Below, piece after piece: positions 741-52,278 of a stretch of 64,000 nt of DNA. This DNA is from Barthelona sp. PCE (Eukaryota), in the NCBI GenBank assembly GCA_040285745.1, contig JAUFOR010000003.1:1426001-1490000 (forward strand). Direction: 5' to 3'. Position 1 is the stretch's first letter. Each line of letters begins with the position of its first letter. A model generated the notes under the pieces. The model was given only the letters and a program-made list of their open reading frames with translations, was not told where the DNA came from and made no database searches. Made by a program: the position numbers and the translations under genes.

Positions 741-1790
741 ATGAATGATATTAATCAAGCTATCGAACAGCTTAGACAAGGGAAATTCCTCAGGGAAGTT
801 CAGATGAAGAGCATCATAACAAGAGTATGTAGTGTAGTTTTTCCATCATTTAACATAGCAACTGAGCATATATGTTCAACTAAACGTCATTTTAAGCACG
901 GACTGTATTGCACGTTGAATATAAGGATTTTTCTATCTTATTCATTATTCTCTAACACTTAGTGTATTGAACTGTTCTCAAAAGAACCCAATATTGTCAT
1001 GCTGAAGCCGCCTGTCACAATTGTAGGCGATATTCACGGACAGTTACATGATCTTATTGAAATTTTCCGCATTGCAGGAGATCTACCTTACACAAGCTAC
1101 CTTTTTCTGGGTGATTTCGTTGATAGGGGCTACTACAGCGTTGAATGTGCTAGTTTATTGTTTGCTTTAAAAGTTAAGTATCCCAACCGTATCACACTAT
1201 TAAGAGGTAATCACGAGTCAAGACAAACAACACAGCTGTATGGATTCCACGAGGAGTGTGTCCGAAAGTACGGTAATTCCAATGTATGGCGATCATTCAT
1301 CCAGGCATTTGATTGTCTGCCAATCAGCGCTACAGTAGACTCAATATTTGCCCTCCATGGTGGTTTGAGCCCAGTAATCGATACACTTGATCAAATCAAG
1401 AACTTGGAGAGGAAGCAAGAAGTGCCACATGATGGAGCTCTTTGTGATCTTCTTTGGAGTGATCCTGATCCACGCCAGGGTTTCTTCCTCTCTCCCAGAG
1501 GCGCAGGATTCATGTGGGGTTCAGGATGTAGCGATGGTTTCCTCCATAGGAATGGACTCTCTCTTATTGCACGTGCTCACCAGGTTACAATGGACGGATA
1601 TCAATATATGCACAACAATAAGGTCGTCACCATCTTCTCTGCACCGAATTATTGTTACAAGGTTGATAATTTAGCTGCTCTTATGGAGGTTGACAACCAT
1701 TGCGATCATTCTTTCCAAGTTTTCGAACCTGCTCCTCGTAGAGGACAACCACACGTAACACGCTCATCACCTGAATACTTTGTCAGCTAA
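741..1790 (+). CDS. PP2A-family Ser/Thr phosphatase catalytic subunit, join(741..824,963..1790), 303 aa
   Basis: PPP motifs GDIHGQ, GDFVDRG, RGNHE, SAPNYC. Tail [17 protein letters not shown] resembles PP2Ac RRGEPHVTRRTPDYFL. Removing 825..962 joins ...SIITR to [14 protein letters not shown] in frame. Confidence 0.93.
825..962 (+). other. Spliceosomal intron, 138 nt, phase 0
   Basis: GTATGT...TCTAACACTTAG; removal restores a continuous PP2Ac N-terminus. Confidence 0.92.
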
Positions 1791-2198
1791 CTGATTAATA
1801 AAATACTTTATCCAATAATATTTGAGACAGCACCCCCAAAACTTACTGATGAACATACTATCTTTCAGTAAGCTGATACTGTTTCCCACATCACGTATAT
1901 GTTGTCCCGTTTGGCCGCTTCAGCATACTACAACACCCAATTTAGTAAAAATGTTACATATGTTAAGATATGATCGAAATCCACTTTTTTAATCTGAAGT
2001 ACCAAAAATGCTACGCTACGCCGCCCCACCGTTTTTTGAAAGCTTTCATAAAGAATAATTCAATTTGAGATGCTCAGATTCAAATTTCATCCGTTAAGGG
2101 GTTGTAAAGCATCGGCAGTCGCTTTAATATCTGTTTAACGAACATAATTCACTACATATAAACCAATAGACTGTTTAAAAAATTTTTCTCTACTTCAA

Positions 2199-3623
2199 AT
2201 GTTTATTAAACTTATTAATGGCACGATCGTAAACCATGATGGTAGATACGAGGGGGACGTTATCATTGACTCCACCACAGGCAAGATTTGTCAATCTCCT
2301 GCAAAAACTGTTCATAAAGTAATTGATTGTACAGGAAAATACATCATTCCTGGTGGCATTGATCCACATGTGCACTTCCAAATGCCTTTCTGTGGTACAG
2401 TTAGTATAGATGACTTCGAAAATGGTTCTAAGTGTGCTCTAAAGGGAGGTACCACTATGTTTATTGATTACGCCCTTAAATCCGATGAGCCCAACTATAA
2501 GGCTGCCTATGACACATACAGAAAGAAGGGAGAAAGCTCATGCTGTGATTTTGGTCTGCATATGATATTTGTCGATTATAATGAGAATATTGAAAAGGAA
2601 ATGGAGTTTGTACGCACAGAAGGAATTACATCTGCTAAGTTTTTCTACGCATATCGTGGGGCTTTGATGATGGAAGAGGAAAAAATGCCTGCTTTCCTTA
2701 CTAAATGCAGAGATCTCAAACTCTTACCTCAAGTACACTGTGAGGACAGTGATATTGTTGACGCTGAGCGTACCAGGATCTTTGAAGAATACACCCCTGA
2801 TCCATTCGGACATTGTTTAAGCAGACCCCCGTATGCAGAAGGTGTCGCTGCCCAGCGCTGCATTGAACTCGCTTCAGAAACCGATGTACCACTGTACATT
2901 GTCCACAACACACACCCTGAGTCAGTTGAAAGAATAGTCAACGCAAGTCAGCAAGGAAAAAAGATTGTTGGTGAAGCGTGTATTGTTCATATGGCTATGG
3001 ATTGGCGTGGTGCGCAGAACAAGAACTTTGATATTGCTGCGCAGCATATACTGTCTCCACCTCTGCGTGAGTACGGCATCAATAATTATATTAAGAATTA
3101 CATTGTGGACGGTGATCTGAAATTAGTCGCCACTGATCATTGTGCTTTCAATGTTGAACAACGCAGGATGGGTGCGGAAGATTTCCGTCGAATCCCTAAT
3201 GGAATGGTCTCTGTCGAGGAAAGATTGATGGTTTTGCATGAGCTTCTTGTCAATACAGGCCGTATTACAATGGAAAAGTTCGTTGAGGTATCGTCTTACA
3301 ACGCCACACAATTATTGGGTATTCCTAACAAAGGTTATATTGCACCTGGTTATGATGCTGATATTGTGATATGGGATCCGACAAAAGAACGTGTTTTAAG
3401 TGCTGAAACTCATCAATCCCACGTCGAAGTGTCGGCTTGGGAGGGCTATTCAGTTACTGGAACACCTGAGATTGTGATTTCACGTGGTGAGATTGTTGTT
3501 GAAAATGGTGAGCTGACTGATGCAGTTGCACCTGGTCGTGGTCAATACATTAAACGTGAAGATTCAATTTTGTTTAGTGATGAAATAAAAAAACTGACAT
3601 ATAACCATACAAAAGAGACTTAG
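2199..3623 (+). CDS. Dihydropyrimidinase / D-hydantoinase (cyclic amidohydrolase)
   Basis: PGGIDPHVH, GGTT, Lys in SAKFFYAY, VHCED, IVH, SPPLR, ATDHC, IPNG, DADIVIWDP. Confidence 0.92.
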   Translation: MFIKLINGTIVNHDGRYEGDVIIDSTTGKICQSPAKTVHKVIDCTGKYIIPGGIDPHVHFQMPFCGTVSIDDFENGSKCALKGGTTMFIDYALKSDEPNYKAAYDTYRKKGESSCCDFGLHMIFVDYNENIEKEMEFVRTEGITSAKFFYAYRGALMMEEEKMPAFLTKCRDLKLLPQVHCEDSDIVDAERTRIFEEYTPDPFGHCLSRPPYAEGVAAQRCIELASETDVPLYIVHNTHPESVERIVNASQQGKKIVGEACIVHMAMDWRGAQNKNFDIAAQHILSPPLREYGINNYIKNYIVDGDLKLVATDHCAFNVEQRRMGAEDFRRIPNGMVSVEERLMVLHELLVNTGRITMEKFVEVSSYNATQLLGIPNKGYIAPGYDADIVIWDPTKERVLSAETHQSHVEVSAWEGYSVTGTPEIVISRGEIVVENGELTDAVAPGRGQYIKREDSILFSDEIKKLTYNHTKET

Positions 3624-3945
3624 CACATTTTTGGAATAAAGCAGGTTGAAGAATATTCCCACCAAAATATTCACCAGAACACGAAAGGCTGACAGCTTCC
3701 CTACTCTCAAACGTTCGGGTTCTGGCATAAGATGAACGGCTAAAAAAAACAGAGGTGAGAAAATCATACAATCGCCATAGGTACAACAAAACCGCAGAAA
3801 AGGGGCACAAATAGCAATTTATATCCACTAAACGCTTCACAAAGAACAGATACTGTCAACAAAATAAGAAATTCTTGAATTCTCTTTTCTACTTTTATTC
3901 TCTCGTTTTTTTTTTCGTTTTATTCGAATTTTCATAACATCCCTC

Positions 3946-6756
3946 ATGAATAACCGTTTAACGTTAAAGAACCTTTTGTTTTTAATTTTTGCTTTGCTGG
4001 CAACATGCTCAGCTGTCGTCATTCCTTGCTCGACATCTGAAACCACCCAGCTGTCAGCAGGAACTACAACATTTACTTTAGATTACTTAAACCGATGTGA
4101 TTCTCGAACAACCTTGAGAACAAACACATACGGACAAGCTATTAAGATAACCATCAATGAGTTCAGTTTGGAAGCTCATAGTACTTGCAACTATGATTAC
4201 ATTTCGTTTGAAGGTGTTGATGGCATATCCCCCACAAGTAGATACTGTACTACTACCCCTTTTAATAGCACAATCGTTACTCCCTCTTCATTGAACTCAT
4301 ATGCCGATTTCTCAATTGTTTTCCATTCTGATGGCTCCGTCGTCCGCTCTGGTATGGATTTTGAAGTTGAAGTTCTTGATTTAGCTTCTCAATGTAACTA
4401 TGTCGGATATTACGTTGATGGCGCATGTGTCTGTATTGGCTCTGGATGTGTTACCAGTGAGCAATTCAGTATGCCATTGGACGATCTTTTGAATGATACG
4501 ATTTCTATCGCTCACCCTGAGGGAATGGTTTATTTTGAAAGCAGTTATCAGCATCGTGCAGATTTCTTCCTCAGATTCACCGCCTACCGTCGCAATGATG
4601 AGATCTTTAAGTTCAAGTTCGATACTCTTGCTCTTGAGAGAAACTATGATTACATTCAGTTCTCTGGGGTCGATTACATTTCTGAATCTCCTATTTATCG
4701 TACTTCTGATATCCTCGCCCTTTCTCGTGATGGGTATTTCTTCTCCAAGCGCGGGGAGGTACCAGTGATGTGGTTTCATTCCGATGGATCCGTCGTCCAA
4801 GCCAACCTCAACATGACATGGGAGTTAACCAATTACACTGATACGGTTGACGTTCACTGTCTCAACATGGGTCGTCACGTTTACAACACATCTTGCGCAT
4901 GTGATTTCGATAGTGTGATTACATTCAGCAGTGACTGTACGGGCGCCGAGAACGTTGTCTTCTTATCCAGCTTCAGCGAACATGAATCCGTTCACGCTGA
5001 TAATCTTTTTGTTTTCAAGAACCCCAACTACGGTCTCAACAACATGAGCGCTGTCATTGATCTTTGCGCCTCTCACATCATCAAATCCATCACTGTCGAG
5101 CAAGGTGGTGACACATCATTCGATATTTCTTATCGCCATGATATTTACGCCACACCTGTCGATATTACTACGTTTGACACTGCAATGGATGTTGAGGAGA
5201 GTACATGCATTTCTTTCATCTTTGAAAGCACTTCCATCCTTTCTGACTTCAACGTCACCATCACCACGCATAACCATAACTCAACTGTCATTGGTTGGTG
5301 CCCAGTTGGCTGTGGACACAATCAACAGTGCACTTCTTCTGGTTGTGAGTGCATGGAGGATTTTTCTGGTGCTGATTGCACCATTTTTTCCCAAGGTCAG
5401 TATCACGCTTTGCTCTCTGATGAGTATATCCAGCGTTCATACAACATCCTTGACGAGCTCGACTTCAACCTTGAGTTCACAACACTTGGTGTTGTCCGTG
5501 GCTATGCTACAATTGAACTCACTGGCATGCACGGTACCATCATTGTAATCCGCAATGGTCAAACTGAGACCACCTATCCCGCGGTGAACATCTTTGATTC
5601 AACTCAGATCTTTTCTTTCCACGTACAAGCCATGGATACCGTTACGATTCAGATCCCTAACCCCGTAGGAGTCATTGTCAGCTTTGACTACACTCGCAGT
5701 CTTTGTGATTGCGTGAATTGTGATCAACGTACATGCTCTTGCTATGCTGATTGGATTGGTGAAGAGTGTAATGTTTTTATGCCCAACTCTGGTTCCGAAC
5801 GCATTGTCGATACTGCATTCATTGAGTACAACTACGAGGAGATGCCTGACAACCTGGACTATACTTTGGACTTCTCCCCTATGATTTCATACGGTGAATA
5901 TTATATTGTACTGTTTGAGAATGCTGCAATTGAAGATTCATCCACTTGTGATTATGACTATATCCAACTCAACAACATCAAGTTGTGTGGTAGCACCGTA
6001 CCTTCTGCTGTCCGTTTCGATATGAGTTCTTTAAATACGATGAGAGTCCATTCTGACAGCTCCGTTCACTCTTCTGTTCGTATCAGAGGTTTCAGCGCCG
6101 TCAACATCCCGTCTACAATTACATGTCAGAGCGAGGAGACTGCATTCTACAACCCCTTTACTGATACAGAGGAATGTGCTATCAACGTCCGTCAGATTAG
6201 AAGAGGAAGCGACTATGATGACTATAACTATGATAACTACGAGTCTGAGTGGTTCTCTTCAATGGTCCGTGTCATTGTTGTACTGTTGATCGTCACTGGT
6301 TGTTGTTGTGGTTGTTGCGCTCCTTGTCGTAAGAAGACCAAGAAGACCAATGAACAAAGACCGACTGCTGCTCCTATCAAACCTATGAATGTCAACAAAC
6401 AAGTTCCTATTGTTGTTTCTGGTCAACCTGCACCTGCTCACGCTCCCAATGTACAGCCTGGTGTACCCACAGCTCAACCTCCAATTGTCGTCTCTGGTTA
6501 TCCTCAGCAGCCCCAGTACCCTTCATCATTACCTATTGCCAGCGCTCCTTCCATGTCATTTGCTCCCAGCATGCTTGGAATGTCTGCTGTTCCTCTTGTG
6601 TCATATCCAATGGCTGGAAGTATGTCTATGCCTCCCATGCCTATGCAGCCAATGAGCATGCAACCAATGCAGCAACACATGCCATCTTATAATCCTACAA
6701 TGGGTTATAATGCTCCTCAGCCTATGCAAAACTATCAGCCTCCCAAGCATTATTAA
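3946..6756 (+). CDS. Type I membrane protein with CUB-like and EGF-like repeats and a Pro/Met/Gln-rich cytoplasmic tail
   Basis: Signal peptide; repeated CUB signatures (CNYDYI...FHSDGSV, NYDYI...FHSDGSV, CDYDYI...VHSDSSV); EGF-like CECMEDFSGADC and CSCYADWIGEEC; one TM helix followed by GCCCGCCAPC. Confidence 0.8.
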   Translation: MNNRLTLKNLLFLIFALLATCSAVVIPCSTSETTQLSAGTTTFTLDYLNRCDSRTTLRTNTYGQAIKITINEFSLEAHSTCNYDYISFEGVDGISPTSRYCTTTPFNSTIVTPSSLNSYADFSIVFHSDGSVVRSGMDFEVEVLDLASQCNYVGYYVDGACVCIGSGCVTSEQFSMPLDDLLNDTISIAHPEGMVYFESSYQHRADFFLRFTAYRRNDEIFKFKFDTLALERNYDYIQFSGVDYISESPIYRTSDILALSRDGYFFSKRGEVPVMWFHSDGSVVQANLNMTWELTNYTDTVDVHCLNMGRHVYNTSCACDFDSVITFSSDCTGAENVVFLSSFSEHESVHADNLFVFKNPNYGLNNMSAVIDLCASHIIKSITVEQGGDTSFDISYRHDIYATPVDITTFDTAMDVEESTCISFIFESTSILSDFNVTITTHNHNSTVIGWCPVGCGHNQQCTSSGCECMEDFSGADCTIFSQGQYHALLSDEYIQRSYNILDELDFNLEFTTLGVVRGYATIELTGMHGTIIVIRNGQTETTYPAVNIFDSTQIFSFHVQAMDTVTIQIPNPVGVIVSFDYTRSLCDCVNCDQRTCSCYADWIGEECNVFMPNSGSERIVDTAFIEYNYEEMPDNLDYTLDFSPMISYGEYYIVLFENAAIEDSSTCDYDYIQLNNIKLCGSTVPSAVRFDMSSLNTMRVHSDSSVHSSVRIRGFSAVNIPSTITCQSEETAFYNPFTDTEECAINVRQIRRGSDYDDYNYDNYESEWFSSMVRVIVVLLIVTGCCCGCCAPCRKKTKKTNEQRPTAAPIKPMNVNKQVPIVVSGQPAPAHAPNVQPGVPTAQPPIVVSGYPQQPQYPSSLPIASAPSMSFAPSMLGMSAVPLVSYPMAGSMSMPPMPMQPMSMQPMQQHMPSYNPTMGYNAPQPMQNYQPPKHY

Positions 6757-7003
6757 TACTAGTTGTTTTTAGTTACATTTTTGTTAATATACAATGTAAA
6801 TACTGACTTTTATAATTGACACGTGTTTTTAGTAACTTAGATTTTCAATTACTAAATATGAAATCTCTACGAAAATTCTCATCACAATAACTTTAGCCAG
6901 ATTAAGGTGAATACATGGCGATAATATGCCTGTGGCGCAGAGTATATTGCGGTCAGCAGGTTTTTACACGTTAAGCGGTTTTTAACTCTTTTCTACTTTG
7001 AAT

Positions 7004-8647
7004 ATGAATCTCTTTTACGTGTTCTACCTTGCTGTTTTGGGCCTTGCTATTGTTTCTGCCGCCCAAGTTAAGGCAGTCGAAGCTAGTGTTTATGTATCGT
7101 CTGTTAGCTCCAACCCCCAATACCATATTAAGTTTGGTGTTTTGGATAAGTACAATGCTGCTGCTTTTGGTTACTACTATCCCGAGCAGAACGTTACAGG
7201 CTTTGATCGTCTTTACGTTCATTCCAACTCTCATTTCCCCGATGATGTTCAAGCGTATGCCATAGGTTTCCTCGAGGGAGCCATCACTGCACCTCAGCTA
7301 TACCTCACAAGCAGGAATTTCCTGAATAATGACTTTAGCGGAAAGCATACTCCAGGAAAAATTCTTGACTTCATGCACACTCAACTTCGCTGGATCCAAG
7401 ACGAGATCAAGGCAAACCCAGAGAGTCTTTATTGGAAAAACATTGAACTCGTTCTTAAGCAGTTCTTCGGTCTTGTCCGTGGTTATAACACCCAGTGCGA
7501 GGATTACCAAGCACTTGATTTTGACACGTTGTTCGCCATTGCATCAGCAGGTGAGCTTGCGGACCTAGTCCCTGGTCTCATTCCTTCGCAACGTTGTGAA
7601 TGGTATCGTTTTCCCCAAGAGGTTTGCCTAGAAGAAGCTGTCAAGCATCACTGTACTGCTTTCATCCGTTTGCTTCCCGACTATAGCGACATCTTTGCCG
7701 CACACAACCTGTGGACATCATACGGTAACCTCCGTATCTATAAGTATTACAACACTCCTTATTCCACAGTTCATGCCCCCAGTGTCTCGTTTTCAAGCAA
7801 GCCCGGTGATCTCCGTTCCAAAGACGATTTCTACCAACTCAGCTCAGGCCTCATTGTGCTTGAGACCAGCCTCCCTGTTTTGAATGACGACCCTTACAAG
7901 AAACTCACACCCGAGAAGACTATCCCCACCTGGATCCGTGTCATTGTCGCCAACCGTATGGCCAAGGACGCCGTCGAATGGACCACCCTCTTCAAGCAGT
8001 ACAACTCAGGTACACATAACAACGAATGGTTCGTGCTTGACACCAACAAATTCACCAAGGGTAAGCCCCTCCCCCCTCAATCTGTATTTGCACTTGACCA
8101 GAGCCCCGGTTACGTTGAAGTAATGGATATGACCGATGAACTGAACACCAACGGGTGGATCGCATCCATCAACATCCCACGTTCTAAGAAAATCTGGAGC
8201 GCAACCGGATATCCCGAATACGTCAAGAACTTTGGCAAGTATGGTCATTGGTTCAGCTATGAAGATGCCCCCCGTATGGCAATCATGCGCCGTGATGCGC
8301 CAAAGGTCAAAACATGGGATGATCTTAAGAAGTTCATGCGCGCCAACGATTATAAGAATGATGAGCTGTCTGAAGGATATCCTTTCAACCAGATTGCAGC
8401 ACGTTGGGATGTCATTGAAGAAAACCCACTCCACTTTAAACCCCAAGCTTATGGCGCTATCGATGCCAAGCTTACCAACCTCGAACGTTTACGTAACATG
8501 AATCCAGAGATTATTGCTGGCCCCACCACTGATGCTGATTATCTTGAGCCCTTCAACTGGGACACTGCATCTGTAGGTCAAGATACTAGCCACATTGGTA
8601 TGCCCAGTGTCTGGAAATTTGATTGGCAGGACGTTCGCCCCGAATAG
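7004..8647 (+). CDS. Phospholipase B-like protein (PLBD family, Ntn-hydrolase)
   Basis: Signal peptide; AYAIGFLEG, HCTAFIR (nucleophile Cys), SKDDFY, YNSGTHNNEW, GAIDAK. First ATG is at 7004. Confidence 0.9.
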   Translation: MNLFYVFYLAVLGLAIVSAAQVKAVEASVYVSSVSSNPQYHIKFGVLDKYNAAAFGYYYPEQNVTGFDRLYVHSNSHFPDDVQAYAIGFLEGAITAPQLYLTSRNFLNNDFSGKHTPGKILDFMHTQLRWIQDEIKANPESLYWKNIELVLKQFFGLVRGYNTQCEDYQALDFDTLFAIASAGELADLVPGLIPSQRCEWYRFPQEVCLEEAVKHHCTAFIRLLPDYSDIFAAHNLWTSYGNLRIYKYYNTPYSTVHAPSVSFSSKPGDLRSKDDFYQLSSGLIVLETSLPVLNDDPYKKLTPEKTIPTWIRVIVANRMAKDAVEWTTLFKQYNSGTHNNEWFVLDTNKFTKGKPLPPQSVFALDQSPGYVEVMDMTDELNTNGWIASINIPRSKKIWSATGYPEYVKNFGKYGHWFSYEDAPRMAIMRRDAPKVKTWDDLKKFMRANDYKNDELSEGYPFNQIAARWDVIEENPLHFKPQAYGAIDAKLTNLERLRNMNPEIIAGPTTDADYLEPFNWDTASVGQDTSHIGMPSVWKFDWQDVRPE

Positions 8648-8788
8648 TCATTGTCTTTATTGGACATTAGAAATAATAAACATATTTTTTTTAGTTTTAA
8701 GATTTTCTCCTCTTACCTACATTTGTTCATCATCATCATCAACTTTTAGCTTATTTTAAACAATTTCTCAAGCACTTATAACGCATTA

Positions 8789-9073
8789 ATGTCTTTATTC
8801 TATTCTTTATTCAAAAGTCTCCTAAAAACTGAAGTTAGGGTTGTTTTTAACACTGGAATGTCCGTCAAGGGGGAGTTATACTCAATCGATCACAGTAACA
8901 ACATCAGACTGCGTAATATAACCGTGGAAAATGTTGAACAGTTTCCTTTCTTAATCGGAAGCTCTGATCTCTTCATTCAGAATGACAATATCGATACAAT
9001 CGAGCCCTTAAACGCCAGAATTGATTATGATGTACTACAACAAGCCACAATCAAGGGTTTTACCAATTTCTAG
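8789..9073 (+). CDS. LSM2: Sm-like protein LSm2
   Basis: LFYSLFKSL N-terminus, Sm1 GELYSIDHSNNIRL and C-terminal LQQAT match LSm2. Confidence 0.78.
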   Translation: MSLFYSLFKSLLKTEVRVVFNTGMSVKGELYSIDHSNNIRLRNITVENVEQFPFLIGSSDLFIQNDNIDTIEPLNARIDYDVLQQATIKGFTNF

Positions 9074-9198
9074 ATTCCAATACATCATAACATTGTTTTT
9101 ATTATAGGCAGTAGAACGCCATACCAACATGCGTAGAGGGGTGTTCTATTTGCTGCCATAACTGTAAATCACACTTGGAAAATTGAGTTGCAAAGTAA

Positions 9199-9510: not shown

Positions 9511-9612
9511 TTTTGCCTGAACTGTGTGATAAGACCCAACGTTGAAAAGAATTATAAACGGAATTACAATTCACTACCTTATTCTTTCAAATTTTTTTTA
9601 TAATATGGTTCT

Positions 9613-20000: not shown

Positions 20001-20893
20001 AGGTGCGCATGTACCCACACTTTGCCATTAACAATGGTCCCTCAACTCATCCTCTTTCACACGAGAAGGAGATCACTGTTAAGAAATGGTGGTGGACAAG
20101 CACTGCAATGGTGCCCACTTCTGTTGATGAACTGTTCCCTCCTCGTAAATCAATGGAGAACAAGCCTGTCATACTTTATGTTCGCGCTTCGGATATTCGT
20201 ATCAGTGACCAGTCACAGTTTATTAATCAGAGATTCATCATTGTTACTGACTCGCTCACGAACAAGGATCTGAAGCCTGCAGAACGTCATCGAATGATGA
20301 TTCCCGTTTTAGATTATGCGTATGAGATTAAGAAGGAGTTTCACGGAAACGTTGCGATCGAATCAGTCGTTGAGGCTATCAAACATGAGTATGAGCTTCC
20401 AGGTACGTTCACGGCATACAGTAGTTATATTGGTGGCAAGCTTCTCAAGAAGCAGCTTGATCCATCTTTGAAGCTAGTTGGTGTTGGTAATGATCTTTAT
20501 CAACCAATTGTACTCATTAACAAATCTGAACGCCCCAACATGGACAACTTCATTTGGACCGAGTTTTCGTTCTGCCGCATGGTGCTCTCCGACCGCGGGC
20601 TTGCCGTCGGTCACATTGGTCATCCATTTTTCTGCTGGGTGCCCCGTGATTATGATGTACTTAACTTTAAGCTATTCTTGGCTGCCCACTTTAATGTAAC
20701 AACAGCTTTGTTTGAGAATTGTCGTTTTGCAAAGCTGAGTAGATCTACGTATCAGAAGGAGTCTTGTTGGATTGATCAAGAGAGTAAGCCAATCACTTCC
20801 GTCTATAATGGAAAGCCTAATCAAATGATCGGCGTTGTTGTTTCATTTGAGAATTTATTCCAACATAACGCCGAATCCCTTGTCATTTACTAG
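17066..20893 (+). CDS. USP7/Ubp15-like ubiquitin-specific protease (MATH-like, USP, UBL-like regions); start may be ATG 17165
   Basis: GVGNQGATCYLNS, LTSSFGW, QHDVQE, LDGENQY, VHYGDVDSGHYY, AYMLAYIR. Confidence 0.88.
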   Translation: MVEKQPFRRYSFVSECFSVYFFTHLFLPFALFLMFTSEPNQSPYINELKHEFKIPVSRLILASSLKDSFVFSNKRFNLTVSSRMVPNHLSFFVEADFDIAPTERFETNLNLGLFNYVGREYIEIPLRLEFHSEKKSIGVPFFIPLDDIYHETVKGRKEQMFSRLSSEKNPGKFVSSNLEKFFTLKEKYIRDGSIYVRARLFDTTKPRYNNPTVPEMLEYIENMPEKLPLGVGNQGATCYLNSMVQTLYHVESFKDVIEDANIDPNAWGMSRRPVVLELRRLFKWLDRGFCAADTRGLTSSFGWSGEVNVQHDVQEFFTVLMGKLQEHYMNVAKAKLDELVEPSFQEIENIVRNNVFSSPVDDLFEGSFCSYLQCCDPDVPFFSANLDKFRSVSVPVKGCSSLKDSLRAISKPEVLDGENQYDTEDYGLQDVYKGQLFHKLPGVLMFHLQRIAYDWRADTITKDRSELKFDEEIDMKPFVLSRKNGRIIELCERHDVRKKLNKLDEVSQHDHRFSKEYFIENGYPDRNPDYSDVKTFSGEPPIVNKCTKYKLAAVIVHYGDVDSGHYYCYCSPLNDPNGQWMRFNDSRVTPVSRYEAMECNFGGNNTCGPRGEAYMLAYIRKDLLEAKGAEEEVYTPGDPIATTIDEVDHYRMMDFMYNKKTTPSFNVQVMQHPEGDYTRGLPPKKVVQSFKRFGDMTISDALTVDKQNLMLKSIYDNWLASYELLTTVAGDPQQFESMKPLSELKIENIAHHSIVKEGDEVEPTEILTKDLVLYGTKPLAIVQQSNSLESCAKLAEMQNRLANDFDELRFVPSSIEASQDPRVHQWRSPMRSVAGNIRLMSTTVLNPECSSFTELVPIKKFMDQVSFVGYIAVNVNIPIKQQISQSKHVSDGITVFVEGGPSIDDDYMHVPFKNTIYVITAYPSQYIQEIEHRNSHVSLELHDYAEHTKVLGDIRIPRTDNYEQLSSRVAEIVNVPSDQVRMYPHFAINNGPSTHPLSHEKEITVKKWWWTSTAMVPTSVDELFPPRKSMENKPVILYVRASDIRISDQSQFINQRFIIVTDSLTNKDLKPAERHRMMIPVLDYAYEIKKEFHGNVAIESVVEAIKHEYELPGTFTAYSSYIGGKLLKKQLDPSLKLVGVGNDLYQPIVLINKSERPNMDNFIWTEFSFCRMVLSDRGLAVGHIGHPFFCWVPRDYDVLNFKLFLAAHFNVTTALFENCRFAKLSRSTYQKESCWIDQESKPITSVYNGKPNQMIGVVVSFENLFQHNAESLVIY

Positions 20894-20902
20894 TAAAATT
20901 GT

Positions 20903-22093
20903 CTATTTAACAAGTTCAAATAGATTAGGGCGAGAACTAACTCTCACAGAGTGAAGTGGTGCATGCGACAAGGAGCTCTGTGCCTCAAGGAATGCACTGT
21001 TCCATCTGTTTCTGAGCGACAGATCGGATGCGGAGGGAAGGGTTTGAAGTAACTCACTGAAACGTTCATTGGCATCAACCATTGATGATTGGACCTCTAC
21101 AACAGGGAAACATGATGATATGTCCACCATTGCTGCCAACACAATGGTTCCATCTTCAGTACCGTACAATAGAAATGTTTCATCAGGGTATTCAGCATTG
21201 GAAGTAATAATACAGTTATCGTTTGACAACTCCTGTCGTAAACTCTCTGCAAACGATACGTTTGTGATCATCTCATCGACATCTAGATCTTGTAGGAGTG
21301 ATTTCACATAATAATATGGAGCGGTTAGTACTTCAAGAGTAACTGCTGTTTTTGGGATTTTTTCCACCATAACCAACTTATCTGAAAGCTTTAAAGGGCG
21401 GCATATTATGTGCCCGATAGCCATAGAGTCAGTGGTTCGAGTTCTAGATAAGGATTTCTGACATACAGCAGTACTTTCTCTGTTACAACACATGCACACC
21501 TTTTTTATGGGTGGTTGGGGGAGAATTATTGGGTAAAGGTCTGCCTTTAGCTTCAATTCAGTGTTAAACATAGAGAAAACTATCCTTCTCTTTAATAAGC
21601 GCTGCATCTCACTTCGAAACAGTGTTTCAAAGTGGTCTACACTGGATATGACGTGGCAGGCACGACCGTAGCGTTCTACCTCATCAACAGCAGCATTTCT
21701 ATCAATAAAATCTTCTATCAATTCATCGCCCGGCATCTGCGCGATAAACACAGTTATTGAAGATTTTGAAGAAAGAATTATGTCTCTCACAGCCTGAACT
21801 GTGGTTCCAAGACAGCCAAACATAATTAAAAATACTGTAGACTGTGTTTTAAATGAGCCAAGCAAAAAATTCTCGAATTGTGGTATGTCGTCTAATAAAT
21901 TGAGCAGTCCCAGGCTTTCACCAGGAAGACCGAATGACTGCTTACCATAAATAAAGAAAAACTGTTCAAAGAAACTTGAATCAGAAAAAAATAAACTCAA
22001 ATGCACCACACGTTCAAAATAGCCCTTAAAAACACCCCTCGAGTCACGATTTCCGCTGCTTTGACCCACAAAAACTGATACCCTCGTATTCAT
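20903..22093 (-). CDS. Probable M1AP (meiosis 1 associated protein)-like protein
   Basis: LKLKADL, KLVMVEKI and LDVDEMITNVSFAESLRQEL resemble, in the same order, segments I recall from human M1AP (LCLKCDL, KLQVIKAL, LDWDELETNQQHFHALCHSL). Confidence 0.5.
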   Translation of the reverse strand: MNTRVSVFVGQSSGNRDSRGVFKGYFERVVHLSLFFSDSSFFEQFFFIYGKQSFGLPGESLGLLNLLDDIPQFENFLLGSFKTQSTVFLIMFGCLGTTVQAVRDIILSSKSSITVFIAQMPGDELIEDFIDRNAAVDEVERYGRACHVISSVDHFETLFRSEMQRLLKRRIVFSMFNTELKLKADLYPIILPQPPIKKVCMCCNRESTAVCQKSLSRTRTTDSMAIGHIICRPLKLSDKLVMVEKIPKTAVTLEVLTAPYYYVKSLLQDLDVDEMITNVSFAESLRQELSNDNCIITSNAEYPDETFLLYGTEDGTIVLAAMVDISSCFPVVEVQSSMVDANERFSELLQTLPSASDLSLRNRWNSAFLEAQSSLSHAPLHSVRVSSRPNLFELVK

Positions 22094-22952
22094 GGTAAGG
22101 ATTGAAAAGTTGAAAACAGTTTGTATTTGTAGGATGGAATTTCAGTGTAGTGTACCTGCATTAGCTTTAGTGTTACACCATTCAAAGCGGAGGAAAAGTC
22201 TATATATCAGTAGTGAAAAATGTGCTGTTTACCGGTGTATCATCTATTGTTGAACACCTAAAAATCTAACTGGAATGTGCCTGACTGGGGAATTTGAGTG
22301 AATTTCAACCATTCGCATAATCGTATCCTTCAACCATATTTGATGAAAACTACCGGCATCTCATTTTGTTGAGCACACCCAAAGTTTACCATACAAATGT
22401 GCTTTATTGTGGACCTCAACTCTGCTCCAAAAATTGTAGAACGTTTTCGTAGAAAATAATCTTGTAATTCAAATTCTGAGTTGTTTCACTCACCCTGACC
22501 GTCCTGGTACGTGTGTGATCGCTAATATACCTTTTTATGCGTATATTTAACGTACTTATATAGCTAACGCTGTAGTAAGTACGCAATTTTTTTATTATTC
22601 TTAATTCAACTTTACAACTGTTACATTGTGTTAATAAACATTGTTTAAGCGTGTTGATTGTAATTTCATTGATTTTCTTTTTTTCTTCACAGTTTATAGG
22701 ATACTTGTTTTGCCCAGAGCAAAGTTATTTAGGTTTCAATGAATTAAGTTGGGATTATATCCAGGACCGAATATAATTTTACGTTAAAATTGGAATGATA
22801 TCGAGATATGTTTTTTTTTGAGTTCATAATACTCTGAGAATTAGTATCAAGGATAAATCCAAACTTCACACAATATAAGCTTCATTACATGTTCCCAATG
22901 ATGTATTTTTTACGTTTTTTGTCATCTTTCCTTTTACTCGAAGCTGCACTGG

Positions 22953-30908: not shown

Positions 30909-31318
30909 ATGCCCGCTCGTGTTGACCCCGAACTTTGCCAAGGTATTGGTAGCTGGTATGTCCATAATATGAGCACTTTGAAAGAAAGATGCTATTAACA
31001 GTAGTCTTTTAGTTATTTAATCATCTGCAGCCAAATGCTGCACCTTGGATTCGAATATATGCATGTGAATTTGTCATTGCGACCTTTTATGTATTGGATA
31101 TTTTTTTTGCATAGATGAACGGTTGAAGGACGTTTTTGGTTGTTACAAGATGATTATGTGCTCGTTAAGTAGTGATTCTAACATTTAGTGTTGATGTTTG
31201 CCCCGTCGCCGCCATCACTATGAACGATGAGGACAAGGCTGTCGTTGACGCTGATGTCTGCATTGATTGTAGCGCCTGTGTTGATGAGTGTGCTGCTCAA
31301 GCTATCTCCATGGAGTAG
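30909..31318 (+). CDS. Bacterial-type dicluster ferredoxin, join(30909..30955,31189..31318), 58 aa
   Basis: Spliced product MPARVDPELCQGIGSCVDVCPVAAITMNDEDKAVVDADVCIDCSACVDECAAQAISME, with CxxIxxCxxxCP and CxxCxxCxxxC motifs. Not in ORF track. Confidence 0.92.
30956..31188 (+). other. Spliceosomal intron, 233 nt, phase 2
   Basis: GTATGT...TTCTAACATTTAG; splicing rebuilds a Cys codon (TG|T) of the Fe-S motif. Confidence 0.92.
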
Positions 31319-42284: not shown

Positions 42285-42302
42285 TAAAATAGCTGTTGTA
42301 GT

Positions 42303-45248: not shown

Positions 45249-45417
45249 TGTGAAAGCAAAATTGAATTTTGGAAAGGGATTAAAAGATTTAATCATTTTA
45301 CAAGTGTGTTGGGGACCCTCTCAGCGTAGGGAACAGGGTGCTAGTGTATCCTAGAGGAATATTTCCCAGAAATTACAAGAAAAATACAGTTTTTGTGTGT
45401 GTAGTGGATTAAAGAGA

Positions 45418-45711
45418 TTATATTTCAAGATACCCAGCAACATGAAGGACATCGTGCAAACTTTCCATAGGGATTTCGAATTCAGGGCGATTAGCTGGAG
45501 AGCCAAGCCAAATTAGTTTGTAGTGCATGTATTTGATAACAATCTCAAGAACGTTGGTGTTGAATGTCATGTTGAACTTGTTTAAGTTTCTAGATATATC
45601 AGCAGCGATCTGTTTCCTAAAATAAGGTGAAATAAGTGCAACATCGATACTTACTAAGAATTCATCGCCCTCTCCAGATATAATACTTACGTACTGTGGT
45701 GCTGAAGCCAT
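45418..45711 (-). CDS. ELOC: Elongin C, 97 aa
   Basis: From ATG 45711: YVSIISGEGDEFLV...VLEIVIKYMHYK...PEFEIP...VAGYLEI. Confidence 0.82.
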   Translation of the reverse strand: MASAPQYVSIISGEGDEFLVSIDVALISPYFRKQIAADISRNLNKFNMTFNTNVLEIVIKYMHYKLIWLGSPANRPEFEIPMESLHDVLHVAGYLEI

Positions 45712-45796
45712 TAAAAAAAAAAGGAAAGAAAGGAAAATGGAAAAGAAATGGAAAACAAAATTTTGTTTCTGTTTACAATGACATATGAAAATAATA

Positions 45797-47342
45797 TCAC
45801 TTTGATGAAGAAGACGAGCTGCCAATGGCAGAATAAATGAACAAATTCGATAAAGTGGCAATAGCAATAGTGTCTTCTGTTGGATGCCAGTCACAATGGA
45901 TGATTTTCTTGTTGAAATCAATATGACTGTGTTGCATAAGATTCCGTGTCCTCTTAGATGACCTTCTACCGCGTTTAGGCAATGAACGACTGGCTTCTAT
46001 CGCTGTATCGACAGTACCATTCGAGTCATAGATGTGGAACACATTGTTGTATGATCCAGTTAAGAAATGGGATCCAGAAGCGCTGGTTACAAGCTTGAAT
46101 CGATCAAACAGTGCTTCGTTTTCATACAATTCCAGTAATCGTGGTCGCAAATGTTCATGAACAGAAATCGAGCGAATAGGTTTCTGGGGTTGCCTCACAT
46201 CCCATAATTTAACACTGAAATAATCTCTTGTGACAAACTGATCAGAAGTCTTGTCTTTGAGAAACTTGATCGAGCCAATGTGATGCATAACTTCACTGAA
46301 GAAGTTATCCTGGGCGCTTGGGGTGTCGAAATTTAATGCTGGAGAGTCGTGTAAAGCTCGTTGACGGGTATCAATCAATCGTACTGAACCTCTAGTTGTT
46401 GCATAGGCAAACAATGAAGAGTTGACTGGATGAGCTTCACATGTGGTGATGATCTCAGACAACTGCTCCAAATCCGAAGGCTGCAGGTCAACAATCTGGA
46501 AGACTTCATCAGTGACACTAAGATTCCAAAGGTTAATTCGGAGGTCGTCTGCTGACAGATAGTGCTCTTGGTCAGGGCAAAGGCTCAGTGAGTTAATGTG
46601 GTGAATGTGACCAGATGCAAAAACACGCTTTGAGTTTGCCATAACAACGTTCTTTACGGGTGTTAAAGTGGGGAGGCGAAGAGATGGTGATGTTGTGTGC
46701 TCCGGGATACGGGTACGCATGCGGACCTCAGAGTGCATGTTTGTTGATACGGTTTTGACAGAACGTTGTGAAACTTGCCATAATTTAATGATCTTCTCAT
46801 TCGTAGTGAGCATCATTTGCTGGTTTGGTTGCTCAGGTAGCCAAACAATATCGTTGATTTTCTCTTCAATATCTTCAGAACGAAGATAATCGAATTGTGG
46901 TTCGTGTGATTGGAACTCCGTGTAATATGAGTACTCTGCAGTCGGCCTACGCGATTCTGTGCTGCTCTAGGTGTTAGATTTCGGTTTATAATGAAGAAGG
47001 TTGTGAGGTAATGCTATCCTTCATCCTTCATTTCTTGTCCATACTCTATTTGCTCGACGGAAAATGATGCATCGTCCTCCGTAGTCTCCAACTGAGATAT
47101 ATAATCCGTCATTTGAGAACTTTACGGTGTTAATCTTATCTGCTAGGTGTTAGAATGTACATGAGATATATTGCAAAGGTGCCATGACGTTAAGTTAGCA
47201 ACAAGAATGTTCTCACTGCTTGTAAATACTAAAATCGTTGTTCTTTCGCAATAAAATATTGATAGTGCATACCTTGGTTTATATCCTCCAGAGCAGCTCG
47301 TTCCCCAAATACTTGGCAAAATTTCCATGCCTTGTTCTGCAT
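45797..47342 (-). CDS. PP2A regulatory subunit B55/Cdc55, exons 47342..47273, 47142..47045, 46966..45797; 445 aa
   Basis: Spliced N-terminus MQNKAWKFCQVFGE...ADKINTVKFS...GDYGGR...EFQSHEPQFDYLRSEDIEEKIN; SADDLRINLW; TRDY; TGSYNN. Confidence 0.94.
46967..47044 (-). other. Spliceosomal intron 2 of B55, 78 nt, phase 0
   Basis: GTATGG...ATCTAACACCTAG; unspliced reading ends at the acceptor TAG. Confidence 0.9.
47143..47272 (-). other. Spliceosomal intron 1 of B55, 130 nt, phase 1
   Basis: GTATGC...TTCTAACACCTAG; restores the frame. Confidence 0.92.
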
Positions 47343-47719
47343 TTTTTATCGTTGCTATATGCTATAAGGAAGTGAAAAGGAAGAAGAAACAGATAACATA
47401 AAATACAGTCAATCTGTGTTGCGGAGTGCATATGTATTATCACATAGAGTGGAATTTTGACACATAAATCTGTCTTTATGTGAAACAAACAGTTTTATTT
47501 TTCCTAATGTGGTTTTTCAGATTTTTTCTTGCAATATCCCAAAGTTTTATTGGTTTTGTTGGTATCAACCCCCCCCCTGCAGGGTTATATCAGTAATATT
47601 ATTGGCAAGCTTCAATTTTTGTGACCAGTAATGAAGTATGTCTTAATATGTTAAATTACCACATTTTTTACTCGATCCAAAGGTTTTTATGCATTCCTAT
47701 TGCTAAATTGAAACAAATT

Positions 47720-48907
47720 CTAGACTGAGATTCCAACCTTTTTCTTTTTAGCATTATTGTTATTCGCATTGTATTCGGCAACAAAGGCATTATAACGCTG
47801 TGTGCAGTGTTTGAATAGTATATACAAAGCATAAAAACAAAAGCAAGCAAACAAGCAAGCATAAACCCTCAACGCACTCTGATAGATAACAGAGAAACTG
47901 AATTCAAACAAATCACCCTTTAAAAAGTTGCTATTTGACCCAAAAAGAACTAGTATTAGCTTTCCTAAAAATCCTAGAGGGAAAATGCTTGTTGTAACAA
48001 TCACAAAAGGAATCCAGATCCGTCCAGCACCCATTTCCCAATCACAATCAGCGAAAAATTTAGCAATAACAATTGTAGATACAACCCATAGCAAGAAATC
48101 TGCAAGGAAAAAAAGAAAGGAAAGAAAGCCAGTGTTGATAAATATGCAAGCAACAGTTAGGTACATAAGTGCACCGTTTGTAAAAAAGGACACCATCACT
48201 AAGCGTTCCCAAAGCATGCGGTTGGCTTTGGCTTTTTTCTTTTCAATATGTTCATGTAACTTATTAATTATCAATATGTGTGGTTTAATTGTACAAGTTA
48301 ATAGGTAGAAAAGACAAACCGCAACCAATATAAGCTCTGAGAGGAATATAGCTCCCTCTATCAAACCACTATATATTAGCAAGGGCGCGTTAGTAGGAAT
48401 CCAATTAATACAATCGTAATAATTCAAGGTATTGGTGTTATGGTAAACAACGGGGGCAAGGTACAGCTGTCTGTTACAGAAACACATGAATGCGAGGAAA
48501 GCATATGTTGCGAACAGAGAACCTATTGCTGCACTGATATATTTAAATACATAGAAGCGATTGAAATATTTCCTAACAGACTTTGAAGTGAGTCTTAGCA
48601 TGTGTAACATTGAAACGTTAACTACAACGAAGAAAAATAATCTGGAATAGTATAAAACTGAGGAAATTTGTGCAAACAACATCAGAATATCAATAATAAG
48701 CAGTATCAATAATATTATATTGAAGTTACAAGATTGTTCTTCTTTTCTACATGAATCAACATCTAAAACGGGATCAATATTGTTTAGAGCATCTGTTTTT
48801 TGGGTCACGTGAGCAAGTGAAGCAGTATTTGCAATGTCAGACGAAAAAATTTCGGTGAAATAGTTGAAGTAATTGATAGCAAAAATGTTTCGTTCTTTTT
48901 GCAACAC
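47720..48907 (-). CDS. Multi-pass membrane protein of unknown function; start uncertain
   Basis: Long ORF with several hydrophobic helices and a basic tail; the first ATG lies about 75 codons into the frame. Confidence 0.6.
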   Translation of the reverse strand: MLQKERNIFAINYFNYFTEIFSSDIANTASLAHVTQKTDALNNIDPVLDVDSCRKEEQSCNFNIILLILLIIDILMLFAQISSVLYYSRLFFFVVVNVSMLHMLRLTSKSVRKYFNRFYVFKYISAAIGSLFATYAFLAFMCFCNRQLYLAPVVYHNTNTLNYYDCINWIPTNAPLLIYSGLIEGAIFLSELILVAVCLFYLLTCTIKPHILIINKLHEHIEKKKAKANRMLWERLVMVSFFTNGALMYLTVACIFINTGFLSFLFFLADFLLWVVSTIVIAKFFADCDWEMGAGRIWIPFVIVTTSIFPLGFLGKLILVLFGSNSNFLKGDLFEFSFSVIYQSALRVYACLFACFCFYALYILFKHCTQRYNAFVAEYNANNNNAKKKKVGISV

Positions 48908-49237
48908 AATCGGAATTTAAGACACTGTTTTTATTTAAAAGAAAGAGTATGATGTAATTGAGAACATTTTTTTTTAATGGGTATTTGTATGACGCGCATT
49001 ATTTACTTTTGATACTTTTTACAGTTTTGAAGACACCAATGAGCTGTCAGTAACTGGTTATTTTTTTGTTAGAAGTGGTCAGCAACAGTAAGCAGGGAAT
49101 CTGTTATTACAATGATATCTCTGTATTCCACGTTTTACAAGCTGCTGACTCGATAAGTATAGATATTGCGCTGTTTGAAGCGATTAATCGCAGTTTTTAT
49201 AGTGCACATTTTTTTTCACCCCCTTTGCATCATTACA

Positions 49238-49792
49238 ATGAACTCTCAATTGAATCAAAATCAAATCCCCTCCACATCCGCCGTCTTTGGTAAAAACAAA
49301 ATCCTCGAACTGATTGAAGAAGGTTCCATCACAATTACCCCATATAGTCCTGAACTCATCGGGCCTGCTTCAGTTGATCTGAAGCTTGGAAACGAGTTCA
49401 GGTATTTCAATATGCAACCAAGCACCATTGACCTCAACAGTGATGTCAATTATAAGGATTACACCGAAAAGATTCATGTAGCAGATGGTGAACCATTTGA
49501 GATCCCCCCCAAAACACTTGTTCTGGGTATCACCAAGGAGAAGATCAGTTTAAGCCCCGAGATCTGTGGATTATTGGAGGGACGTTCAAGGTTCGCTAGA
49601 ATGGGACTCTTTGTACACGTAACAGCAGGATTTATGGCACCAGGAATCGAGAACCATCAGGTGCTTGAAATATTTAACGCTAGTCCCACCACAGTTCGCG
49701 TATATCCTGGAACCCCTATTTGTCAGTTTATCTTTATGTCATGTGAAGGTGCTGATAAGTATCGTGGAAGTTGGGCTAACCAAGAGCTCTAG
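49238..49792 (+). CDS. dcd: dCTP deaminase (trimeric dUTPase superfamily), 184 aa
   Basis: PASVDLKLG, LGITKE, LEGRSRFARMGL, TAGFMAPG, LEIFN, ICQFIF, YRGSWANQ. Confidence 0.88.
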   Translation: MNSQLNQNQIPSTSAVFGKNKILELIEEGSITITPYSPELIGPASVDLKLGNEFRYFNMQPSTIDLNSDVNYKDYTEKIHVADGEPFEIPPKTLVLGITKEKISLSPEICGLLEGRSRFARMGLFVHVTAGFMAPGIENHQVLEIFNASPTTVRVYPGTPICQFIFMSCEGADKYRGSWANQEL

Positions 49793-49994
49793 AATAAACA
49801 TTTTTTTTTTGACACATAAACAATATTTTGAGTTTTACAGAAGACCCCAGTTTTTGCAAAAAAATGATAAAGAATACTAGGGTCATGCAAAATAAGAAAC
49901 TGATTAATATCTGGATTATCGTCCTATCTAGCTGTAATTTTGATGAGAGTGAAATCATAGAGCATAACTAAAAAAAAACCACTAAGCTCACTCA

Positions 49995-52278
49995 CTATCT
50001 TGCAGAACTAGGACGGGAAGCAACAAGACTATCTTCATAGTACTTATAGTTATTGCTAATACTCTCCATGATTTGTAAAGCACGTTTTTCTTCAGGGAAA
50101 ACCTTGACAAATGCCTCAAAAGTAGGTTCAACAACAAATTTGATAAAGTTAAACTGACACTTAGGGAGCGAAGCAGTATCTCTATCACAGAAAGGTGAAA
50201 CTTGGAGACCAAGTGACTTCTCTTGATCACCCTACTTACCGAACTCTTCCATAACATGCTGAGCCCACCTATACGCAATAGGTCTAGGACGTGCGGGGTT
50301 TGAGATATCAGCCACTTTCATTATCATCTGGGTAAGCAGCAGCCTGTCAGCCTCCTCAGTGAAGACGTACTCGTCCATACCCTGGAGACGAGTCTTAAAG
50401 CTACCAAGTATATCGAAATGTTTGGCCATGTCAGTAGCCAGAACGAGATCAATGACATGCTTACGGAACGTCATCTGCTCTTCCCGTGGCATGGAAGACA
50501 GGATGTTCATGTTCTTATCACTTAGAACACCCATAAAGACTGCACTGAGATGATGATTCTCGAGGACTGAACGATCATTGTAAACGAGGGCGAGGTGTGT
50601 CTGCTTGTTGATCTGGAATTGGTTTGTCGTTCCAGGGTGACCAACATCATGGATGACAGCGGAGAAAAGAAGCGCGAAAATCTCGAGATCCGTTAATCCA
50701 CGTTCGAGACCGCATGACGTCAACAAGAAATGTACGCATTGAAGAACGTCAGCTGCGTGTACGCGGGAGTGATATGGGTTCTCGACTTTGTACGCACTCT
50801 CAATCGCAATCAAGAAATTACGTAAAGTGGTATCGGAAATGCCAAACTTTGATGGAATATCGTGGTACAAAAAGATTGCGTAGCCGACAAACAAGAGCGG
50901 CTTCTGCGTCGACTCATCAATGCGGTGGGCGCTAAAGTTCCATTCCTTTAGATTCTTAGCAAGGTCACCATACGAAACTTCCGTCTTCTCAGACTGGCTC
51001 ATCATTCGTGATACACGAGTAATGACTGCGAAATTGGTCATACGGTTACGCGAAGGCTCTCCAAGTGTTGTACCGCCGTTTGTAGGTGAATTGAGAGAAG
51101 GTGATGACGACTCAAACTTCTTGTTTGCAAAGAGAACATTCATTTCTCCGAGCCATCCACTCAGCTCCTCATCGTTCATGTTGTCCGCATGTGAGATGAT
51201 AGGGTTGTGAAGACGATCACTGAGTGAAAGCTCAGTGACGACGTAGTCGATAATAGCGATGTGTTCCTTACTCAAAGGAGCATCCTGTTTCAGCGCCTTC
51301 AGGAGCGCAAGGACCTTGGACATAGGTGTTTCTACCTTGTCTTCGCTATGTACGTAACGTTGGATCTGATCTTCAAGTGCTGCGTTACGCTTCTGAAGAC
51401 GGAGCAGTTCCTGCTTTGATTCAGAGATTGTATCAACGTAACGCTGGACGAATGACTGGATGTTGAGGAACAGTACACCAAGAACGGTGATACACACAAA
51501 AATCGTAAGCGATCTTGACCAGCTGATGGGCTCAGTTAGAGGCAAGCCCTTATATGCGTCGTTGGACATTGCAGACGTATCCTGATAGAAATAGTCCATG
51601 AACAAAAGGCAAGAAGAGTAAACAACAATTGTTAGGAAAATATACAACGAAATTTTTCTCTTGAGCTCGGGATCATTAGATTGAAGGTGGATGGAGCACA
51701 CACAACTGAAGTAGATCAAGGCTACAGTCGCATGTGCCTCGCGTGCTGCGATCGTGATGATTGCGAAAGGGAGTAAACTCGCAAAAAGAGGAAAACTTGA
51801 GTAGGGATTAAAATATAAACGAATACGAGCAATACAAAAGTTAACAAAGAAAGCAAAGAGGTACGGGATTGCCGTACTGTAGCGTACATTAGATACCCAC
51901 TCACTGATTTCAGCGGTAAAAATGATGAATAACACCAGAGCATTAACTGCAATGGACTAAAGGTTAGGGTTTTGCAACGGCGTGCGAGTAGAAGTCTTGT
52001 AGACGTATTCAAACGAATGAAGTTCAATATTATTGAACAAAACAAAAAAAGATCTTCTTTCATTGTGAATAATGATGCATTGCCCAAAAATTACCATGTG
52101 TACGGCATGGGTGCCCGTATCTTAGTAAAAAATTGAAAAGACAAAATTACAGCAAGGAAAAATTGTTTAATCGCGTGTTCGTCTAAAATCTTCTATTCGA
52201 CAGCTGGAAACATACCTGAACTTGCAGTGGCCCTGTGATTGAAGGTCTAGACTGAGACTTTTTGATACTATTAGTCAT
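49995..52278 (-). CDS. Membrane-anchored class I cyclic nucleotide phosphodiesterase; exons 52278..52216 and 51956..49995; in-frame TAG at 50232..50234
   Basis: N-terminal TM helices and coiled coil; NPYHSRVHAADV, IHDVGHPG, VLENHH, LATDM, ADISNPAR, EEFGK*GDQEK, SPFCDR, CQFNFI. Confidence 0.88.
51957..52215 (-). other. Spliceosomal intron of the PDE gene, 259 nt, phase 0
   Basis: GTATGT...CCCTAACCTTTAG joins an ATG-initiated 21-codon exon (MTNSIKKSQSRPSITGPLQVQ) in frame to the main ORF, which has no early ATG. Confidence 0.87.

Follow-up and report, generated by a model that had tools for sequence, protein, structure and literature searches.

Predicted helices closing four of five introns in a 64-kb stretch of the Barthelona sp. 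PCE genome weakly exceed chance as a set

Five introns of 78–259 nt lie in a 64,000-nucleotide stretch of the genome of Barthelona sp. PCE (GenBank assembly GCA_040285745.1, contig JAUFOR010000003.1, positions 1,426,001–1,490,000 of the forward strand; hereafter the window). They interrupt the genes for the catalytic subunit of PP2A (PP2Ac), its regulatory subunit B55 (two introns), a 2x[Fe-S] ferredoxin and a class I cyclic-nucleotide phosphodiesterase (PDE). Four of these introns contain, 12–19 nt past the donor, a segment that can pair with one lying 15–20 nt before the branch adenosine. This raises the question of whether selection maintains such helices in the service of splicing, as was proposed by an earlier interpretation made from the letters alone (the sequence-only reading), or whether RNA of this kind simply folds in this manner. 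We put the probability at about one in two that these are five ordinary cis introns in which at least the strongest closing helices have been kept by selection and aid splicing. Selection would then be acting on at least the helix of the PDE intron, and probably on those of both B55 introns. Such helices would hold the donor and the branch point together, and may thereby aid the splicing of introns longer than a reduced spliceosome easily handles. The introns, with positions counted from the first letter of the window, are as follows.

825–962, forward strand: PP2Ac intron, 138 nt (46 codons, in frame), phase 0, GTATGT...TCTAACACTTAG, without an end-closing stem
30956–31188, forward strand: ferredoxin intron, 233 nt, phase 2, GTATGT...TCTAACATTTAG, interrupting a Cys codon
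47272–47143, reverse strand: B55 intron 1, 130 nt, phase 1, GTATGC...TCTAACACCTAG
47044–46967, reverse strand: B55 intron 2, 78 nt, phase 0, GTATGG...TCTAACACCTAG
52215–51957, reverse strand: PDE intron, 259 nt, phase 0, GTATGT...CCTAACCTTTAG

Judged by their signals and reading frames, all five are real, ordinary, cis-spliced introns of the U2 type. Each begins with GTATG (GTATGT in three cases, GTATGC and GTATGG in one each) and ends in YCTAAC-N3-TAG, so that the branch point is fused to the acceptor at a fixed spacing. The window contains five copies of the motif CTAACNNNTAG, where 1.18 would be expected, and every one of the five is the acceptor of a listed intron. Removal of the introns restores a continuous homologous frame in PP2Ac, ferredoxin and, for both introns, B55, whilst the spliced PDE model is identical, residue for residue, to the deposited 618-aa protein P0001. 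For PP2Ac, where the sole in-frame stop of the intron is its own acceptor TAG, we aligned the read-through protein to human PP2A structures in the PDB, and found residues 3–27 to correspond to chain residues 9–33 and residues 76–348 to chain residues 36–309. As this alignment skips the 46 intron codons, they constitute an insert found in no PP2A structure. The spliced B55 model is collinear with eight homologues over both junctions; intron 1 shifts the reading frame, and when intron 2 is left unspliced the eighth in-frame codon is TGA. In the ferredoxin gene, exon 1 provides 16 residues and part of the split Cys codon, in keeping with the alignment of the opening residue of exon 2 to position 17 of 7Fe ferredoxins. 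The GC content of the introns is 31–37 %, compared with 40 % for the window, and four of them interrupt the gene models adopted here no later than codon 28, with B55 intron 2 following codon 56. A relaxed scan of the window for more introns (GTATG ... YTRAY-N3-5-YAG) returned matches that we judged to be chance, leaving n=5, and no intron shorter than 78 nt was found in the window.

The pairing segments had been marked out in the sequence-only reading, and in all five introns we found the arms where it had placed them and paired as it had described.

52180–52199, reverse strand: PDE 5' arm, starting 16 nt into the intron; 17 bp with 51985–52005, duplex −15.1 kcal/mol
51985–52005, reverse strand: PDE 3' arm, 28 nt from the intron end, 20 nt before the branch adenosine
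47243–47253, reverse strand: B55 intron 1 5' arm, starting 19 nt into the intron; 9 bp with 47169–47178, −8.3 kcal/mol
47169–47178, reverse strand: B55 intron 1 3' arm, 26 nt from the intron end, 18 nt before the branch adenosine
47024–47032, reverse strand: B55 intron 2 5' arm, starting 12 nt into the intron; 9 bp with 46990–46998, −7.2 kcal/mol
46990–46998, reverse strand: B55 intron 2 3' arm, 23 nt from the intron end, 15 nt before the branch adenosine
30969–30976, forward strand: ferredoxin 5' arm, starting 13 nt into the intron; 8 bp with 31158–31165, −10.4 kcal/mol
31158–31165, forward strand: ferredoxin 3' arm, 23 nt from the intron end, 15 nt before the branch adenosine
871–880 with 914–923, forward strand: PP2Ac central complementarity, 10 bp, with 46+39 nt outside

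A helix following the donor and preceding the branch point is present in the minimum-energy folds of four introns, giving four end-closing stems; those of PDE and ferredoxin appear in the centroid folds as well. The ferredoxin intron forms an additional inner helix of ∼18 bp. The PP2Ac complementarity had already been called central and a poor fit, and indeed the ensemble forms only 0.3 expected bp there. When 60 nt of exon flank were added, both B55 stems persisted.

As a set, the end-closing helices weakly exceed chance, as gauged against dinucleotide-shuffled versions of the five introns. For the best duplex between 40-nt end zones, 2000 shuffles gave p-values of 0.24 for PP2Ac, 0.29 for ferredoxin, 0.34 for B55 intron 1, 0.035 for B55 intron 2 and 0.0025 for PDE (Fisher p 0.0035); the 17-bp PDE stem is thus reached by only ∼0.25 % of shuffles, which is difficult to ascribe to chance. 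For the longest gapless helix leaving a span of 35–45 nt, the corresponding values, in the same order, were 0.20, 0.16, 0.020, 0.005 and 0.96 (Fisher p 0.0046), this test missing PDE because bulges interrupt its stem. The expected number of pairs between 30-nt end zones was 0.15, 10.8, 12.1, 9.8 and 16.4, compared with shuffle means of 3.0–4.8 (p=0.83, 0.088, 0.048, 0.10 and 0.012; Fisher p 0.006). Four of the five introns therefore fall in roughly the top 10 % of shuffles for end-zone pairing, and the result is stable over zone sizes (Fisher p 0.009 at 20 nt, 0.0055 at 25 nt and 0.004 at 40 nt). Moreover, a single exterior helix closes four of the five real folds, compared with 29–60 % of shuffles, which again argues against chance. 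With regard to overall stability, unconstrained minimum free energy (MFE) z-scores were −1.89 for PDE and −1.80 for ferredoxin; against 200 shuffles each, they were −2.15 for PDE, with 2 shuffles folding equally well, and −1.50 for ferredoxin, with 16 doing so. With the splice motifs held unpaired, the z-scores were −0.39 for PP2Ac, −2.41 for ferredoxin, −0.88 for B55 intron 1, −1.67 for B55 intron 2 and −2.31 for PDE. The proposal that the stems stand apart from shuffled controls is weakly borne out for end-zone pairing across the set, and clearly so for PDE alone; it is not robust for the remaining introns taken singly, and does not hold for the span. In a search for relatives in which to examine covariation, a metagenome scan with B55 exon 3 yielded none, whilst PP2Ac exon 2, used likewise, matched 80 loci with identities of 53–59 %, which represent generic eukaryotic PP2A and were left unused.

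The span had been the centrepiece of the sequence-only reading, according to which the stems bring the intron ends to a near-constant 35–45 nt. To assess this, we folded the interior of each intron after dinucleotide shuffling (300 shuffles per intron), keeping 7 nt of donor motif and 12 nt of branch/acceptor motif unpaired. The median number of unpaired exterior nucleotides in the shuffles was 36 for PP2Ac, 31 for ferredoxin, 34 for B55 intron 1, 39 for B55 intron 2 and 36 for PDE, with 57–69 % of shuffles leaving 30–50 nt and 27–40 % leaving 35–45 nt. The real introns, folded under the same constraint, left 27, 21, 45, 35 and 27 nt, respectively. The PDE and ferredoxin values lie under those given earlier because both stems run outward past the ends chosen for them; therefore, the 35–45 nt figure is partly a matter of where a stem is taken to end. 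Neither in real nor in shuffled introns does effective length grow with real length. As shuffles give an equal span at lengths of 78–259 nt, an outcome that the sequence-only reading had itself named as speaking against it, this part of the proposal falls. The constant span reflects the generic closeness of RNA ends and is not evidence for selected stems, since any folded RNA yields such a span. General theory agrees: once an RNA has folded, its two ends lie a short distance apart, and this distance hardly varies with the length or sequence of the molecule (Yoffe et al., 2010, PMC3017586; Lai et al., 2018, PMC6193969). Our shuffles behave likewise. This generic closeness holds for all RNAs; a lone, strong closing helix of the kind present in the PDE intron does not follow from it. 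As the 'single-stranded distance' measure is matched by shuffles, published claims resting on it need shuffle controls.

The strongest rival, which we consider a serious possibility, is that the stems are chance complementarity in AU-rich introns of 80–260 nt, the product of generic RNA folding with no role in splicing. On this view, introns of such composition and length will always form some helices, and anyone searching for stems close to their ends would come across them. In addition to the span, a series of observations favours this explanation and weighs against selection. Unconstrained MFE z-scores are near zero in three of the five introns (PP2Ac +0.38, B55 intron 1 +0.13, B55 intron 2 −0.56), which fold no better than their shuffles, and for three the end-zone duplex is no stronger than in shuffles (p=0.24–0.34). 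When 130 random natural segments of the window replaced the shuffles, the p-values for 30-nt end-zone pairing were 0.82 for PP2Ac, 0.10 for ferredoxin, 0.12 for B55 intron 1, 0.28 for B55 intron 2 and 0.023 for PDE, and the Fisher p was only 0.037. Across statistics, p ranged from 0.09 to 0.29 for ferredoxin, 0.02 to 0.34 for B55 intron 1 and 0.005 to 0.28 for B55 intron 2, such that only PDE is robust singly. The PP2Ac intron, at 138 nt, has no closing stem (end-zone pairing of 0.15 bp, p=0.83). The ferredoxin stem is context-dependent, with expected arm pairs dropping from 7.7 to 0.0 upon addition of a 60-nt exon flank on each side; those of PDE, at 16.9 with flanks of 0 or 60 nt, are halved to 7.4 with 150 nt. 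Furthermore, the window contains no class of short, 35–45 nt introns that could serve as a reference length, and the statistics were picked after the data had been seen, on only five introns. In a sliding-window control, the branch-proximal window ranked 8/12 for PP2Ac, 1/31 for ferredoxin, 6/10 for B55 intron 1, 4/4 for B55 intron 2 and 5/36 for PDE; the control was poorly designed, with overlapping windows, the last of which excludes part of the PDE arm, and it carries little weight either way. Set against chance, alongside the pairing excess described above, is that a like pattern has been reported in three related lineages (PMC6679479).

Returning to selection for splicing, we infer that the helices would form in vivo and help splicing. 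The broader claim, that this spliceosome needs a short effective length supplied by RNA structure, is borne out in part. The helices of four introns and the set-level excess favour it; the generic span, the unpaired PP2Ac intron and the flank-dependent ferredoxin stem do not. A strict requirement for a stem is unlikely, because the PP2Ac intron has essentially no end pairing.

It is improbable that the ferredoxin and PDE introns fold for some other purpose, for example by forming a regulatory structure or harbouring a non-coding RNA, with closure of the ends as a by-product. These two longest introns are the only ones to fold better than shuffles overall (constrained z −2.4 for ferredoxin and −2.3 for PDE), and the inner ferredoxin helix would suit such a role; against it, nowhere in the window does a match to an Rfam family attain the gathering score, box C (RTGATGA/TGATG) occurs in none of the five introns and CTGA only once, in PP2Ac, with no convincing small nucleolar RNA boxes. 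In some eukaryotes, introns arise from introner-type elements that carry inverted repeats, and the PDE arms do resemble imperfect 20-nt inverted repeats ∼175 nt apart. Nevertheless, that the arms are a historical remnant, the terminal inverted repeats of a mobile element (a miniature inverted-repeat transposable element or introner-like) that made or lengthened the intron, is very improbable: a blastn search of the 64-kb window with the five introns returned no second copy of an intron or arm, only chance matches of ≤ 16 nt and a 12-nt branch/acceptor motif common to both B55 introns; inspection by eye revealed no direct repeats beside the PDE arms; and the Barthelona sp. PCE genome is only 4.46 % repetitive (PMC11316075, Table 1).

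The sequence-only reading took the host to be a diplomonad. PDE exon 2 is 100 % identical to an NCBI protein labelled Barthelona sp. PCE, and the GC content of the window, 40.3 %, equals that tabulated for this genome (PMC11316075, Table 1). As barthelonids are the sister group of Fornicata (PMC11316075), and not diplomonads, the diplomonad framing is wrong. The precedent it invoked, the shortening of longer diplomonad cis-introns by base pairing, has been published for Giardia lamblia and Spironucleus vortens/S. salmonicida, and also for Trichomonas vaginalis (Hudson et al., 2019, PMC6679479). In that work, long Giardia introns fold to leave 35–45 nt and those of T. vaginalis 25–44 nt; the cases are MFOLD predictions, with no shuffle control in the sections consulted (PMC6679479). 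The ferredoxin intron of Giardia undergoes splicing in T. vaginalis (PMC6679479). The long introns of Giardia, Spironucleus and Trichomonas share with those described here an extended 5' splice site (consensus VTATGTT in G. lamblia), a fused branch point and acceptor, and an internal stem-loop, outside which only some tens of nucleotides stay single-stranded between the splice sites. The CTAAC-N4-AG spacing in the window is that of Giardia and Trichomonas (VCTRACACRCAG) rather than the longer one of Spironucleus (RCTAACAARHTAG) (PMC6679479). All five introns carry the three marks of metamonad-type cis-introns, namely an extended donor within GT...AG, CTRAC-N4-AG and a restored frame; the stem that marks the structure-shortened introns of Hudson et al. 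is present in four, but not in PP2Ac. The introns differ from the published cases in that their host lies outside Fornicata and Parabasalia, in having TAG as acceptor in all five, in being longer (78–259 nt versus 40–67 nt in S. vortens; PMC6679479), and in that there is no uniform short-intron class in this window and one of the five lacks a stem. The interpretation at issue is, in essence, the hypothesis of Hudson et al. (2019) moved to a new organism. The barthelonid may, on weak support, be a new lineage for a known phenomenon, with nothing new in kind. We found no published description of barthelonid introns; the main text of the genome paper (PMC11316075) names introns just once, in its methods.

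A further comparison is with the zipper stems of yeast (RPS17B and others), which in many yeasts are commoner than in shuffled sequences, and on which some introns depend for efficient splicing (Rangan et al., 2025, PMC12350175). The stems in the window, of 8–17 bp and beginning after 12–19 nt, agree with those of yeast as far as the stem itself is concerned, but their geometry does not: the distance from stem to branch adenosine (20 nt in PDE, 18 nt in B55 intron 1, and 15 nt in both B55 intron 2 and ferredoxin) is too close, and the linker (36, 37, 27 and 28 nt, respectively) is too short, making for a tighter tether (PMC12350175). Therefore, the likeness to the yeast stems is one of mechanism and not of family membership.

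The stems had also been cast as a possible precursor state to trans-splicing. That such stems could be a route to split introns was already speculated by Hudson et al. (2019) (PMC6679479); the idea is hence not new, and the window contains no orphan acceptor, given that all five CTAACNNNTAG motifs have a same-strand GTATG donor 78–259 nt upstream. In the split introns of Giardia, complementarity between post-donor and pre-branch segments holds the two halves together, and similar segments pair here (PMC6679479). In Giardia, however, the halves are on separate transcripts, whereas here donor and acceptor are on one transcript, 78–259 nt apart. The arms in the window form 8–17 bp, and similarly short Spironucleus stems were judged probably too short for association in trans (PMC6679479). 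Nothing in the window points to trans-splicing.

Among the matches of the relaxed scan was a candidate, GTATGG...CTGATATATAG, of 195 nt at 22200–22394 on the reverse strand, in the gap upstream of an open reading frame (ORF) of unknown function (20855–22093, reverse strand); this interval may be a 5' intron whose branch site departs from the consensus. At the density of the window, with five introns in 64 kb and 65 mechanical ORFs of ≥ 120 aa on both strands, a genome of 10 Mb would contain perhaps hundreds of introns, far above the 4–13 tabulated for diplomonads (PMC11787283, Table 1).

Several observations concern the intron-bearing genes themselves. PDE exon 2 (49992–51956, reverse strand) contains an in-frame TAG at 50232–50234, in the context FGK-TAG-GDQE, and this codon aligns with a Gln of MEEFFRQGD in human PDE4D. 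The frame and its homology run ∼76 residues further, to a TAG-TGA end, and the deposited 618-aa model ends at the internal TAG, in the middle of the domain. This codon, which lies within a donor-like string, GTAAGTAG, possibly reflects stop-codon readthrough, a very recent nonsense mutation or a base error. It also led us to consider a genetic code with TAG as Gln, an idea discarded after 11 other long ORFs of the window had been translated with TAG as Gln. In these 11, each TAG falls in the last 25 codons, past the recognizable part of the gene or the domain, within a 5' leader, or is an intron acceptor; therefore, TAG is an ordinary stop in the window. A small ORF with an LSM domain (PF01423, E=2.4e-4, under the curated cutoff), at ∼8800–9000 on the forward strand and directly downstream of a phospholipase B gene, was noticed only because reading through TAG as Gln joined the two. 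No tRNA genes were found in the 64-kb window. For the B55 gene (45797–47342, reverse strand), the only identical protein in the collection searched, P0121 (339 aa), begins at an internal ATG of exon 3 and is without 106 N-terminal B55 residues, encoded by exons 1 and 2 and the start of exon 3. As P0121 starts inside exon 3, both B55 introns may be absent from existing gene models. Finally, PP2Ac (1776–1790, forward strand) ends in ...PEYFVS, compared with ...PDYFL in the human protein, and thus has no terminal Leu, the residue that is methylated in other eukaryotes.

If the stems are functional, structure-assisted splicing would reach a third deep metamonad lineage, which would argue for an early origin, along with the fused branch-point/acceptor signal, and not for separate origins in parasites. 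That dependence on intron-closing helices is ancestral to the whole part of Metamonada comprising Parabasalia, Fornicata and the barthelonids/skoliomonads is, in our view, unlikely. If it were so, a 10-Mb genome with perhaps hundreds of introns of 80–260 nt would be the best natural test set for how RNA structure replaces lost parts of the spliceosome, and for how cis-introns become splittable.

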